64,000 nt of DNA, from assembly GCF_054482525.1 (NCBI RefSeq), contig NZ_CM137006.1; one strand, 5' to 3'. Shown here one piece after another: positions 6,819 through 50,523 of the stretch (position 1 is its first letter; each line of letters begins with the position of its first letter). The notes under the pieces are model-generated. The model did not search any database and was not told the origin of the DNA. It saw only the letters and a program-made list of their open reading frames with translations. The translations under genes and the position numbers were made by a program.

Positions 6819-8087
6819 ATGATTATCAAACGCACTCCTCAAGCCGCGTCGCCTCTGGCTTCGTGGCTTTCTTATCTGGAAAACCTGCACAGTAAAACTA
6901 TCGATCTCGGCCTTGAGCGCGTGAGCCAGGTCGCGGCGCGTCTTGGCATTCTGAAACCAGCGCCATTTGTGTTTACCGTTGCGGGTACGAATGGCAAAGG
7001 CACCACCTGCCGTACGCTGGAGTCGATTCTGATGGCGGCAGGGTACAAAGTGGGCGTCTACAGTTCGCCGCATCTGGTGCGTTATACCGAGCGCGTACGT
7101 GTGCAGGGCCAGGAATTGCCGGAATCGGCCCACACCGCCTCTTTTGCGGAGATTGAATCGGCACGCGGTGATATTTCCCTGACCTATTTCGAGTACGGTA
7201 CGCTGTCGGCGTTGTGGCTGTTCAAACAGGCACAACTTGACGTGGTGATTCTGGAAGTAGGGCTGGGCGGTCGTCTGGACGCAACCAATATTGTCGATGC
7301 CGATGTTGCGGTAGTAACCAGCATTGCGCTGGATCATACCGACTGGCTGGGGCCAGATCGCGAAAGCATTGGTCGCGAGAAAGCAGGCATCTTCCGCAGC
7401 GAAAAACCGGCAATTGTTGGTGAGCCGGAAATGCCTTCTACCATTGCTGATGTGGCGCAGGAAAAAAGTGCACTGTTACAACGTCGGGGCGTTGAGTGGA
7501 ACTATTCCGTCACCGATCATGACTGGGCGTTTAGCGATGCTCACGGCACGCTGGAAAATCTGCCGTTGCCGCTTGTCCCGCAACCGAATGCCGCAACGGC
7601 GCTGGCGGCACTGCGTGCCAGCGGGCTGGAGGTCAGTGAAAATGCCATTCGCGACGGGATTGCCAGCGCAATTTTGCCGGGACGTTTCCAGATTGTGAGC
7701 GAGTCACCACGCGTTATTTTTGATGTCGCGCATAATCCACATGCGGCGGAATATCTCACCGGGCGTATGAAAGCGCTACCGAAAAACGGGCGCGTACTGG
7801 CGGTTATCGGTATGCTACATGATAAAGATATTGCCGGAACTCTGGCCTGGTTGAAAAGCGTGGTTGATGACTGGTATTGTGCGCCACTGGAAGGGCCGCG
7901 CGGTGCCACGGCAGAACAACTGCTTGAGCATTTGGGTAACGGCAAATCATTTGATAGCGTGGCGCAGGCATGGGATGCCGCAATGGCGGACGCTAAAGCG
8001 GAAGATACCGTGCTGGTGTGTGGTTCGTTCCACACGGTCGCACATGTCATGGAAGTGATTGACGCGAGGAGAAGCGGTGGCAAGTAA
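6819..8087 (+). CDS. folC: Bifunctional folylpolyglutamate synthase / dihydrofolate synthase
   Basis: 422 aa; P-loop GTNGKGTT; recognised FolC sequence. Confidence 0.95.
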   Translation: MIIKRTPQAASPLASWLSYLENLHSKTIDLGLERVSQVAARLGILKPAPFVFTVAGTNGKGTTCRTLESILMAAGYKVGVYSSPHLVRYTERVRVQGQELPESAHTASFAEIESARGDISLTYFEYGTLSALWLFKQAQLDVVILEVGLGGRLDATNIVDADVAVVTSIALDHTDWLGPDRESIGREKAGIFRSEKPAIVGEPEMPSTIADVAQEKSALLQRRGVEWNYSVTDHDWAFSDAHGTLENLPLPLVPQPNAATALAALRASGLEVSENAIRDGIASAILPGRFQIVSESPRVIFDVAHNPHAAEYLTGRMKALPKNGRVLAVIGMLHDKDIAGTLAWLKSVVDDWYCAPLEGPRGATAEQLLEHLGNGKSFDSVAQAWDAAMADAKAEDTVLVCGSFHTVAHVMEVIDARRSGGK

Positions 8088-8727
8088 GTTTCAGAATCGG
8101 TTAGTGGGCACGATCGTGCTGGTGGCGCTGGGGGTGATTGTACTTCCAGGGCTGCTGGACGGGCAGAAAAAACATTATCAGGATGAGTTCGCGGCTATCC
8201 CGCTGGTGCCGAAAGCTGGCGATCGCGATGAGCCTGATATGATGCCAGCCGCCACCCAGGCGTTGCCGACGCAGCCGCCGGAAGGCGCAGCGGAAGAGGT
8301 GCGGGCAGGTGATGCCGCAGCACCGTCGCTCGATCCGGCCACTATTGCAGCCAATAACACCGAGTTTGAACCGGAACCTGCACCGGTCGCCCCACCGAAG
8401 CCGAAACCGGTGGAGTCGCCTAAACCGAAGGTTGAAGCACCACCTGCGCCGAAGCCGGTCGTGGAAGAAAAAGCAGCGCCAACGGGTAAAGCCTATGTTG
8501 TACAACTGGGCGCACTGAAAAATGCCGATAAAGTGAATGAGATTGTCGGTAAGCTGCGCGGTGCCGGTTATCGGGTTTATACGTCGCCATCCACGCCAGT
8601 GCAGGGCAAAATTACCCGTATTCTGGTTGGGCCAGATGCCTCGAAAGATAAGCTGAAAGGTTCGCTGGGTGAGTTGAAGCAACTTTCTGGCTTAAGTGGC
8701 GTGGTAATGGGCTATACGCCGAATTAA
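8077..8727 (+). CDS. dedD: Cell division protein DedD (SPOR domain)
   Basis: GTG at 8077 preceded by GGAG at 8067-8070 gives (M)ASKFQNRLVG...; N-terminal TM segment, Pro/Lys/Ala-rich linker, C-terminal SPOR-like domain; overlaps folC 3' end by 11 nt; track ORF starts at upstream TTG 8059. Confidence 0.85.
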   Translation: MASKFQNRLVGTIVLVALGVIVLPGLLDGQKKHYQDEFAAIPLVPKAGDRDEPDMMPAATQALPTQPPEGAAEEVRAGDAAAPSLDPATIAANNTEFEPEPAPVAPPKPKPVESPKPKVEAPPAPKPVVEEKAAPTGKAYVVQLGALKNADKVNEIVGKLRGAGYRVYTSPSTPVQGKITRILVGPDASKDKLKGSLGELKQLSGLSGVVMGYTPN

Positions 8728-8736
8728 TACGGTCTT

Positions 8737-8847
8737 GCCTGATGCGACGCTGGCGCGTCTTATCAGGCCTGCGCAGGGGTAGAGCCGTAGGTCGGATAAG
8801 GCGTTTACGCCGCATCCGACACGCATTGTCCGATGCCGCAAAGGCAT
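8737..8847. repeat. REP / BIME cluster (two full REP palindromes plus a partial third) between dedD and cvpA
   Basis: GCCTGATGCGACGCTGGCGCGTCTTATCAGGC (8737-8768) and GTAGGTCGGATAAGGCGTTTACGCCGCATCCGACACGC (8787-8824) match canonical E. coli REP sequences in opposite orientation. Confidence 0.8.
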
Positions 8848-8985
8848 AAAAAGTCGATGGCGTTGAATATTTTTTCAGCGCCATTTTTATTGATGCGCGG
8901 GAAGGAAATCCCTACGCAAACGTTTTCTTTTTCTGTTAGAATGCGCCCCGAACAGGATGACAGGGCGTAAAATCGTGGGACACAT

Positions 8986-9474
8986 ATGGTCTGGATTGAT
9001 TACGCCATAATCGCGGTGATTGCTTTTTCCTCTCTGGTTAGCCTGATCCGCGGCTTTGTTCGTGAAGCGTTATCGCTGGTGACATGGGGTTGTGCTTTCT
9101 TTGTTGCCAGTCATTACTACACTTACCTGTCAGTCTGGTTTACGGGCTTTGAAGACGAACTGGTTCGAAATGGGATTGCCATCGCGGTACTGTTTATCGC
9201 TACCCTGATCGTTGGTGCTATCGTGAACTTCGTGATAGGCCAGTTGGTGGAGAAAACGGGGTTGTCAGGCACCGATCGGGTGCTGGGCGTCTGTTTCGGT
9301 GCGTTGCGCGGTGTGTTGATTGTTGCCGCCATTCTCTTCTTTCTCGACTCCTTTACCGGGGTGTCGAAAAGCGAAGACTGGAGCAAATCACAGCTGATCC
9401 CGCAGTTCAGTTTTATCATCAGATGGTTTTTTGATTATCTGCAAAGCTCGTCAAGTTTCTTGCCCAGAGCGTAA
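8986..9474 (+). CDS. cvpA: Colicin V production membrane protein CvpA
   Basis: 162 aa multi-TM ORF immediately upstream of purF (cvpA-purF-ubiX arrangement). Confidence 0.9.
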   Translation: MVWIDYAIIAVIAFSSLVSLIRGFVREALSLVTWGCAFFVASHYYTYLSVWFTGFEDELVRNGIAIAVLFIATLIVGAIVNFVIGQLVEKTGLSGTDRVLGVCFGALRGVLIVAAILFFLDSFTGVSKSEDWSKSQLIPQFSFIIRWFFDYLQSSSSFLPRA

Positions 9475-30233: not shown

Positions 30234-30283
30234 GCCTGATGTCGCATCCGGCGCTTATTGCCTGATGCGACGCAGACTCCGGC
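30234..30283. repeat. REP-like palindromic element between convergent yfbS and yfbR
   Basis: GCCTGATGTCGCATCCGGCG...GCCTGATGCGACGC; arms GTCGCATC / GATGCGAC are reverse complements; resembles REP consensus. Confidence 0.5.
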
Positions 30284-39523: not shown

Positions 39524-39575
39524 CCGAATTTCGATTAACGCTCAGTCTCTGACTGAGAAAACTGGAAGCATGCTA

Positions 39576-49811: not shown

Positions 49812-50523
49812 GTGCACAGAAAACCCCCAGCTAGGCTGGGGGTTCCGGAAAGCTTTCAGCTTTAAGCCAGTTATTAAAACCCCTTTTGATTTGTTAAAAC
49901 ACCTTGCGGTCTGGCAACTGCAAGTGTCAAACAAGAAATCAAAAGGGGGTCCCAATGGGGAACGAAAAGAGCTTAGCGCACACCCGATGGAACTGTAAAT
50001 ATCACATAGTTTTTGCGCCAAAATACCGAAGACAGGTGTTCTACAGAGAGAAGCGTAGAGCAATAGGCAGTATTTTGAGAAAGCTGTGTGAGTGGAAAAG
50101 TGTACGGATTCTGGAAGCTGAATGCTGTGCAGATCATATCCATATGCTTGTGGAGATCCCGCCCAAAATGAGCGTATCCGGCTTTATGGGATATCTGAAA
50201 GGGAAAAGCAGTCTGATGCTTTACGAGCAGTTTGGTGATTTGAAATTCAAATACAGGAACAGGGAGTTCTGGTGCAGAGGGTACTACGTCGATACGGTGG
50301 GTAAGAACACGGCGAAGATACAGGATTACATAAAGCACCAGCTTGAAGAGGATAAAATGGGAGAGCAGTTATCGATTCCCTATCCGGGCAGCCCGTTTAC
50401 GGGCCGTAAGTAACGAAGTTGGATGCAAATGTCAGATCGTGTGCGCCTGTTAGGGCGCGGCTGGTAAGAGAGCCTTATAGGCGCATTTGAAAAACCTCCG
50501 GCTATGCCGGAGGATATTTATTG
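49812..50523 (+). mobile_element. IS200-like insertion sequence (IS200/IS605 family), about 0.7 kb; boundaries approximate (+/- 15 bp)
   Basis: Single 152-aa TnpA ORF of the HUH/Y1 type; subterminal hairpins at both ends (49824-49842 CCCCCAGC-TAG-GCTGGGGG; 50495-50513 CCTCCGG-CTATG-CCGGAGG); no terminal inverted repeats, as expected for this family; size matches IS200. Confidence 0.75.
49955..50413 (+). CDS. tnpA: IS200 transposase TnpA (HUH single-strand DNA transposase)
   Basis: 152 aa from ATG 49955 (MGNEKSLAHTRWNCKYHIVFAPKYRR...); HuH motif in ADHIHMLVEIPP; conserved Tyr in the C-terminal part; track ORF begins at an upstream in-frame start at 49904. Confidence 0.9.
   Translation: MGNEKSLAHTRWNCKYHIVFAPKYRRQVFYREKRRAIGSILRKLCEWKSVRILEAECCADHIHMLVEIPPKMSVSGFMGYLKGKSSLMLYEQFGDLKFKYRNREFWCRGYYVDTVGKNTAKIQDYIKHQLEEDKMGEQLSIPYPGSPFTGRK

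Follow-up and report, generated by a model that had tools for sequence, protein, structure and literature searches.

A BIME-2 unit of variable copy number in the dedD-cvpA spacer of Escherichia coli

The dedD-cvpA spacer and its two REPs

The DNA analysed here, a stretch of 64,000 nucleotides referred to as the window, is E. coli chromosome, judging from sequence identity. Of 5,426 complete E. coli genomes, 5,425 gave a match to positions 8600-9000, beneath which dedD and cvpA are annotated, and strains SCU-102, PCN033 and 19KM1776 are ~100% identical to the window over its first 20 kb. The genes follow the order accD-folC-dedD, a spacer and then cvpA-purF. Measured from the dedD stop codon (TAA, 8725-8727) to the cvpA ATG (8986), the spacer is 258 bp long, which confirms the length given in the original prediction. 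That prediction had placed in the spacer a BIME-like cluster of two canonical REP palindromes and a partial third. An allele identical to that of the window is carried by 34 genomes. The features referred to below are the following, with positions in the window.

8059-8727, plus strand: dedD open reading frame, encoding DedD.
8725-8727, plus strand: dedD stop codon TAA, from the reading of the open reading frame; G8737, 9 nt further on, opens the stem of the first REP.
8736-8772, minus strand: REP1, a z2-type REP, TGCCTGATGCGACGCTGGCGCGTCTTATCAGGCCTGC, with 1 mismatch to the z2 pattern.
8773-8786, no strand assigned: tail-to-tail linker GCAGGGGTAGAGCC, 14 nt, of the same length and near-identical sequence in all units of all alleles.
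8787-8821, plus strand: REP2, a y-type REP, GTAGGTCGGATAAGGCGTTTACGCCGCATCCGACA, with 2 mismatches to the y pattern and its 5' GTAG intact at 8787-8790.
8822-8831, plus strand: head-side linker CGCAT followed by TGTCC, which repeats the TGCC(T) that opens the unit; right boundary of the unit (8740-8830).
8833-8847, plus strand: small hairpin ATGCC-GCAAA-GGCAT of 5 bp, present in the minimum free energy (MFE) fold; body of the 'partial third REP'.
8856-8888, plus strand: intrinsic terminator of the folC-dedD transcript, with a 12-pair stem, a 6-nt loop and a T-run, from a terminator scan and folding.
8701-8769 and 8790-8824, and 8736-8821 on the minus strand: sub-threshold Rfam matches to naRNA4.

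The y and z2 consensus patterns were validated on the REP325 copies of K-12, where the y copies equal the y pattern exactly and the z2 copies deviate in one loop base only. Scanned formally in this way, the 64 kb window holds a single match to each pattern, against 0 matches in 100 dinucleotide shuffles, so that both palindromes align with a REP consensus (z2 and y) at 1 and 2 mismatches, respectively. They are therefore canonical REPs in opposite orientation, as had been predicted, and the possibility that they are chance palindromes was rejected, since both match their type consensus far beyond chance. The z2 copy of the window is also alike to the REP325 z2 copies at 35 of 37 positions, and a repeat finder recovered both palindromes as inverted repeats (I4 and I5).

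The two REPs face each other tail to tail, 14 nt apart. The z2 copy is an imperfect palindrome of 37 nt with 8+5 pairs and a C/T bulge, whose 13-pair stem is paired in 98.6% of cells over 16 variants of the locus, two pairs showing compensatory changes. The y copy is an imperfect palindrome of 35 nt with 7+4 pairs and an AA/GC internal loop, and its 11-pair stem is paired in 96.7% of cells over 11 locus variants. This copy reads GGTCGG...CCGACA instead of the consensus GGCCGG...CCGGCA; because both differences lie opposite each other in the stem, the change from C-G to T-A is compensatory. On the plus strand the z2 copy is an 'iREP', running from the head TGCC to the tail CCTGC, and the GTAG convention reads the minus strand. 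Its tail tetranucleotide is GCAG in the window (plus-strand CCTGC, 8768-8772) and GTAG in K-12. The loss of the z2 GTAG is a point mutation in one allele and no ground to exclude the copy from the REP family.

The element is both extragenic, lying in the 258-bp spacer, and highly repeated, a 401-nt query having matched at 16 places in the median E. coli genome. A mismatch-count scan of the window found no other full REP and only a head-to-head remnant at 30236-30275, which makes it acceptable to call this element, as was originally done, the main repetitive one besides IS200. The core pattern GCCKGATGCG, allowing 1 mismatch, gave 25 matches against 13.5 expected and is too unspecific for counting REPs. 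The REP features absent from the NC_000913.3 record at dedD-cvpA are equally absent there at REP325, so this absence is uninformative as evidence.

The remnant at 30236-30275 lies in the convergent yfbS/yfbR spacer and comprises two REP head halves, head to head (GTCGCATCCGGC GCTTAT TGCCTGATGCGACGC), with the tails absent. It looks like a degenerate BIME remnant, and its length is constant in 5,424 genomes, in contrast to the polymorphic dedD-cvpA site.

Unit structure, copy number and routes of gain and loss

REP and BIME elements have been known for about 40 years. In the published classification, BIME-1 elements combine a z1 and a y REP in single copy, with a long L linker that contains an IHF site, while BIME-2 elements are made of z2 and y REPs joined by short linkers and form tandem arrays that differ in copy number among strains (PMC3333891). 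At dedD-cvpA, a z2 and a y REP stand in inverse orientation with linkers of 14 and 5 nt, in tandem units that vary in number among strains, and the unit of 91 bp is made up of the z2 REP (37), the tail linker (14), the y REP (35) and the head linker (5). The feature as a whole is very probably best explained as a single BIME-2 unit of 91 bp, located in the transcribed 3' UTR of folC-dedD. As such it belongs to a family of non-autonomous palindromic repeats of E. coli that is linked to RayT/TnpA_REP, the REP-associated tyrosine transposase. The earlier reading of a BIME of well-known biology in this spacer was right. The K-12 orthologue is included in a published BIME-2 table, and the dedD-cvpA BIME is thus already known: it is an ordinary BIME-2, the K-12 orthologue of which has been catalogued with gyrase cleavage data.

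This K-12 element occupies the same locus as a single unit in a spacer of 258 bp and is 98.8% identical to the window over 401 bp. Three substitutions separate the two: K-12 has CCTAC as the z2 tail, GAACC in the linker and TGCCC at the boundary, and the window has CCTGC (loss of the minus-strand GTAG), GAGCC and TGTCC, respectively. REP325, the model BIME-2 of K-12 (yjdM-yjdN), resembles the locus in its alternating inverse y and z2 REPs, its tandem units and its position in a 3' UTR between co-directional genes. The two differ in their dimensions: REP325 repeats a 100-bp unit six times, its linkers measuring 11 nt on the head side and 17 nt on the tail side, whereas the single unit of the window is 91 bp long, has linkers of 5 nt (head) and 14 nt (tail) and stands ahead of a strong intrinsic terminator.

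In order to compare strains, alleles were fetched where the BLAST span differed from 401 bp. Spacers of 167, 258, 349, 440, 531, 622, 713 and 804 bp were found, corresponding to 0 to 7 exact 91-bp units. Among 98 chromosomes, taken as two systematic 'spread' samples of the match ranking and including two three-unit calls (O157) inferred by analogy with allele L011, the single-unit state, which is also that of K-12, was the commonest (~67%); three units were present in 13%, four in 8% and two in 2%, while 3% had no unit and arrays of five to seven occurred as single cases. Seven units are present in UPEC 536, and two in E. albertii and in the divergent 'E. coli E69' record. REP copy number at this locus, for which a comparison between strains had been proposed, therefore does differ, from 0 to 7 units. 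No IS insertion in the REPs was found in any sampled allele, and the two alleles whose left flank was lost in BLAST (H156 and H157) carry no IS and have arrays of 5 and 4 units, respectively. Two alleles have smaller deletions, one of 23 bp that removes most of the z2 REP (L007) and one of 20 bp that removes half of a y REP (L005). As read from the alleles, these small out-of-register deletions show BIME decay alongside the changes of whole units. A 91-bp variable-number site with 0 to 7 units is usable as a typing marker, and natural alleles with 0, 1 and 6-7 units are a ready series for testing REP function in a 3' UTR.

The zero-unit allele defines the limits of the unit. In it, TACGGTCTTGCC is directly joined to CGATGCC, while in one-unit alleles the same TACGGTCTTGCC is followed by TGATG...CGCATTGCC and only then by CGATGCC, and the unit boundaries fall immediately after TGCC. 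TnpA_REP binds REPs that bear a 5' GTAG and in vitro cuts z2 iREPs between TGCC and TGAT (PMC3333891); in vitro it also performs strand transfers that add BIMEs. In each of the eight 8-kb bins of the window the plus strand has a positive GC skew; being G-rich throughout, it is the lagging-strand template. Of the 48 y copies, 47 have kept their GTAG, while 16 of the 48 z2 copies, that of the window among them, carry a mutated CTAC; these copies are non-independent and come from 15 genomes.

Units may thus be gained and lost in register by TnpA_REP strand transfer on the lagging-strand template, that is the plus strand, or alternatively by RecA-independent slippage or unequal exchange between units. 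An explanation by host processes alone (replication slippage and unequal recombination of 91-bp units, with no part played by RayT/TnpA_REP) has a chance only a little short of even. It accounts for the fact that all changes are in-register multiples of 91 bp and that, as ordinary tandem arrays do, the locus shows homogenised units within an array and differing linkers at the edges (CGCAT versus GCCGT/GTCGT); the deletions of 20 and 23 bp, which are out of register, are slippage-like, and arrays are widespread although one third of E. coli genomes are without rayT, the gene being found in 3575 of 5426. Weighing on the other side, the unit boundaries coincide with the site at which TnpA_REP cuts in vitro, on the lagging-strand template the y REP has kept the GTAG that TnpA_REP requires, in contrast to the decaying GTAG of z2, and the enzyme itself performs BIME-adding strand transfers in vitro.

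The present data fit both routes equally, RayT acting on the plus strand or slippage and unequal exchange with boundary repeats of 5-11 nt. That the locus is a readable record of RayT action rather than of plain slippage is a doubtful proposition, which draws on the TGCC that delimits every unit, the scar-free zero-unit junction at the same place and the fact that, on the lagging-strand template, the y REP alone retains GTAG. If it were true, the number of units (0-7) could be a strain-specific dial on the processing of the dedD 3' end and on translation termination, and could also tune the insulation of the PurR-controlled cvpA-purF promoter.

In the lineage of the window the element is probably static, because its z2 GTAG is mutated and PCN033 is without rayT at the canonical locus. 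In PCN033 the yafL-flhA spacer (L139, 3688-3848) measures 161 bp where K-12 has rayT, and this absence refers to the canonical locus of a near-identical genome only. The 161-bp spacer is filled by palindromes of the CCCTCGCCCC...GGGGAGAGGG/GGGGTGAGGG type, and PCN033 has an intact lateral-flagella cluster (flhA...) instead of the lfhA pseudogene of K-12. The element shares with REPIN/RAYT systems and with the subterminal hairpins of IS200/IS605 an imperfect hairpin with a 5' guide tetranucleotide (GTAG), the target of a Y1 HUH transposase that works on single-stranded DNA. Unlike these systems, it has no transposase in or beside it, and the closest genome is without rayT at the canonical site.

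The supposed third REP and the slot before the terminator

The partial third REP of the original prediction (8827-8847) did not hold up. Its similarity to a REP lies in TTGTCCGATGC, which is located exactly 91 nt downstream of the z2 head TTGCCTGATGC and agrees with it in 9 of 11 letters (10 of 11 in K-12). A cluster of three REPs, the third being the stump of a z2 REP left by the contraction of a longer array, would explain this match and its spacing of one period after the first z2 head, and the next unit would indeed start at TGCC. Nevertheless, the whole motif is retained in the zero-unit allele (L008), which has no REP. This allele reads TACGGTCTTGCC followed directly by CGATGCCGCAAAGGCAT, where one-unit alleles read TACGGTCTTGCC, TGATGCG...CGCATTGCC and then CGATGCCGCAAAGGCAT, and the third element and the z2 head share only TTGYC, which is the unit boundary. 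As the motif is present without any REP, only TTGCC is common to it and the z2 head. Furthermore, the motif is not followed by any sequence like the 3' arm of a z2 REP.

What lies at this place in other genera also argues against a stump. From GATGCC on, the third element aligns with (A/G)TGCCCGAAGAGGCA of Citrobacter and Salmonella, in which (A/G)TGCC-CGAAGA-GGCA(T)AAAA stands directly 5' of the terminator. At the same position but with a different stem, Kosakonia, Phytobacter and some Enterobacter have GCC-C(N)(N)AGA-GGC, other Enterobacter GACGTC-CAAAGA-GACGT and Silvania GCGTC-CAGAGA-GACGC. In a count of the named structure over 32 sequences, the small hairpin is paired in 64% of cells against 21-46% in slid controls, and 14 cells show double changes against 7 +/- 2.5 in shuffles, a modest support that is weakened by register shifts. 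RNAalifold, run on the 32 sequences, recovered the terminator alone; it misses the small hairpin, which differing loop lengths put out of register. The third element is thus probably the local form of an ancestral small hairpin, not itself a REP, that precedes the terminator, and a truncated REP is an improbable reading of it.

Together, the small hairpin and the terminator form a two-hairpin module (8833-8888) composed of a small GC-rich stem-loop, an A-run and the 12-bp terminator with its T-run, the position of which is conserved across Enterobacteriaceae. The terminator hairpin, loop included, is near-invariant over the 32 Enterobacteriaceae sequences, which come from many genera. This conservation exceeds what a terminator needs, and the hairpin lies ~30-60 nt upstream of the PurR box. 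The module may serve as upstream promoter DNA for cvpA-purF or as an RNA module of the 3' UTR.

A scan of species representatives with the exact 20-mer at the PurR box, ACGCAAACGTTTTCTTTTTC, gave at least 120 loci in as many Enterobacterales representatives. Between the dedD stop and the terminator, the palindromic repeats at these loci (L012-L131, e.g. L045, L057, L028, L014, L093) differ by genus. Citrobacter has y-type and z1-like REPs, Salmonella arizonae one z-like REP, and Enterobacter, Kluyvera, Kosakonia and Pluralibacter have CCCTCACCC/CCCTCTCCC...GGGAGAGGG/GGGTGAGGG elements, of which Pseudocitrobacter faecalis (L045) carries a tandem array of 548 nt (CCCTCTCCC...GGGAGAGGG/GGGTGAGGG). 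The CCCTCTCCC...GGGAGAGGG/GGGTGAGGG palindromes of Enterobacter, Kluyvera and Kosakonia are comparable to the BIME in occupying the same slot, from the dedD stop to the hairpin-terminator module, and in being tandemly amplifiable too, but their sequence is unrelated to y and z REPs.

Transcript context, protein binding and RNA

The BIME starts 9 nt downstream of the dedD stop and ends 35 nt short of the intrinsic terminator, and since this terminator is downstream of it, the BIME is transcribed in the folC-dedD 3' UTR. For the 185-nt 3' region, the MFE structure has an energy of -84.5 kcal/mol (z = -6.1) and includes the two REP hairpins as well as the small hairpin and the terminator. In RNA, the two REP hairpins would act as a barrier to 3'-to-5' exonucleases or as a partial terminator for dedD mRNA, and they may damp the termination of DedD translation. 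REPs located up to 15 nt from a stop codon are reported to stall terminating ribosomes (Liang et al. 2015, as cited in PMC12306157). REP325 stabilises upstream mRNA and is a partial Rho-dependent terminator, with strong dependence on context, and terminal REPs do not generally extend half-lives (Harris 2026, bioRxiv 10.64898/2026.03.23.713779). By analogy with these cases, we infer that RNA-barrier and translation-stalling roles at dedD are conceivable. The REPs may add little, because a strong intrinsic terminator already follows the BIME. Neither dedD nor cvpA is mentioned in the Harris 2026 preprint or in the RepRanger paper.

Further downstream, the PurR operator ACGCAAACGTTTTCTT is found at 8914-8929 and a -10-like TAGAAT at 8937-8942, ahead of the cvpA-purF-ubiX operon. 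The promoter scan of 8500-9100 returned no sigma-70-like site, and for that reason the cvpA promoter, which we take to consist of the PurR box and TAGAAT, is recognised from these two elements only. The cvpA-dedD spacer of K-12 also contains a peak of sigma-54 (RpoN) holoenzyme in genomic SELEX (31-32%; PMC8743547). No convincing TGGCAC-N5-TTGC site was seen for this peak, the z2 loop region TGGCGCGTCTTATCA being a weak match only.

The original prediction had attributed to the element the binding of DNA gyrase and IHF and the stabilisation of mRNA. The gyrase and mRNA parts are applicable here; the IHF part is not, as IHF binding is a trait of BIME-1 and the locus has no IHF site. An element of the BIME-1 (RIB/RIP) class with IHF binding as its main role is a most improbable alternative, suggested by the mention of IHF in the earlier note and by the inverted pair of REPs, one of them y, which is the general format of BIMEs. 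It was rejected since the partner of the y REP is z2 rather than z1 (z1 has no match in the window at up to 7 mismatches), the linkers are of 14 and 5 nt instead of the long L motif, the IHF consensus WATCAANNNNTTR is absent from 8700-8900 (its 2 matches in the window are both elsewhere, which is chance level) and the published table places the locus under BIME-2. None of the distinguishing traits of BIME-1, namely z1, single copy and a long L linker with an IHF site, applies at dedD-cvpA. Given the z2 and y REPs, the short linkers and the lack of an IHF site, only the gyrase and mRNA biology applies.

The earlier interpretation is therefore partly supported: it was right in substance and needs two corrections, as the element is a BIME-2 and not of the IHF type, and the third element is probably no REP. 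The correct label is BIME-2 (z2/y) instead of a three-REP cluster of the IHF type, a change of little significance beyond annotation.

As regards gyrase, the element in its DNA form could be a transcription-independent gyrase site. The K-12 locus is listed as 'BIMEs2 2437498-2437581, 83 bp, <cvpA-<dedD', with 0, 2, 1 and 0 cleavage sites under Cfx, RifCfx, Micro and Oxo, respectively (Sutormin 2019, Table DS3). The K-12 gyrase signal is thus weak, at 0 with ciprofloxacin alone, 2 with rifampicin plus ciprofloxacin and 1 with microcin (microcin B17). By extension from K-12, we infer a possible gyrase role for the element of the window.

A local search with Rfam RF02564 (naRNA4), a model built from the y and z2 pair of REP325, matched both hairpins at E ~1e-4, with scores of 38.1, 38.0 and 33.3 bits that fall below the gathering score of 59.5. 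These matches, at 8701-8769, 8790-8824 and 8736-8821 (minus strand), are all that speaks for a gene for an naRNA4-like nucleoid-associated non-coding RNA, a reading we consider scarcely credible and rejected, because 33-38 bits against 59.5 reflect only the shared REP hairpins, the REPs are ordered tail to tail here and head to head in naRNA4, the promoter scan of 8500-9100 found no promoter-like site, and the HU-naRNA4 compaction model is itself contested (bioRxiv 10.64898/2026.03.23.713779).

Two other Rfam matches in the window score above their gathering scores. One is STnc490 at 49822-49945 (146 bits), which is associated with IS200 ends and consistent with the IS200 of the earlier note, and the other is the nuoG RNA motif at 39526-39568 (50 bits).
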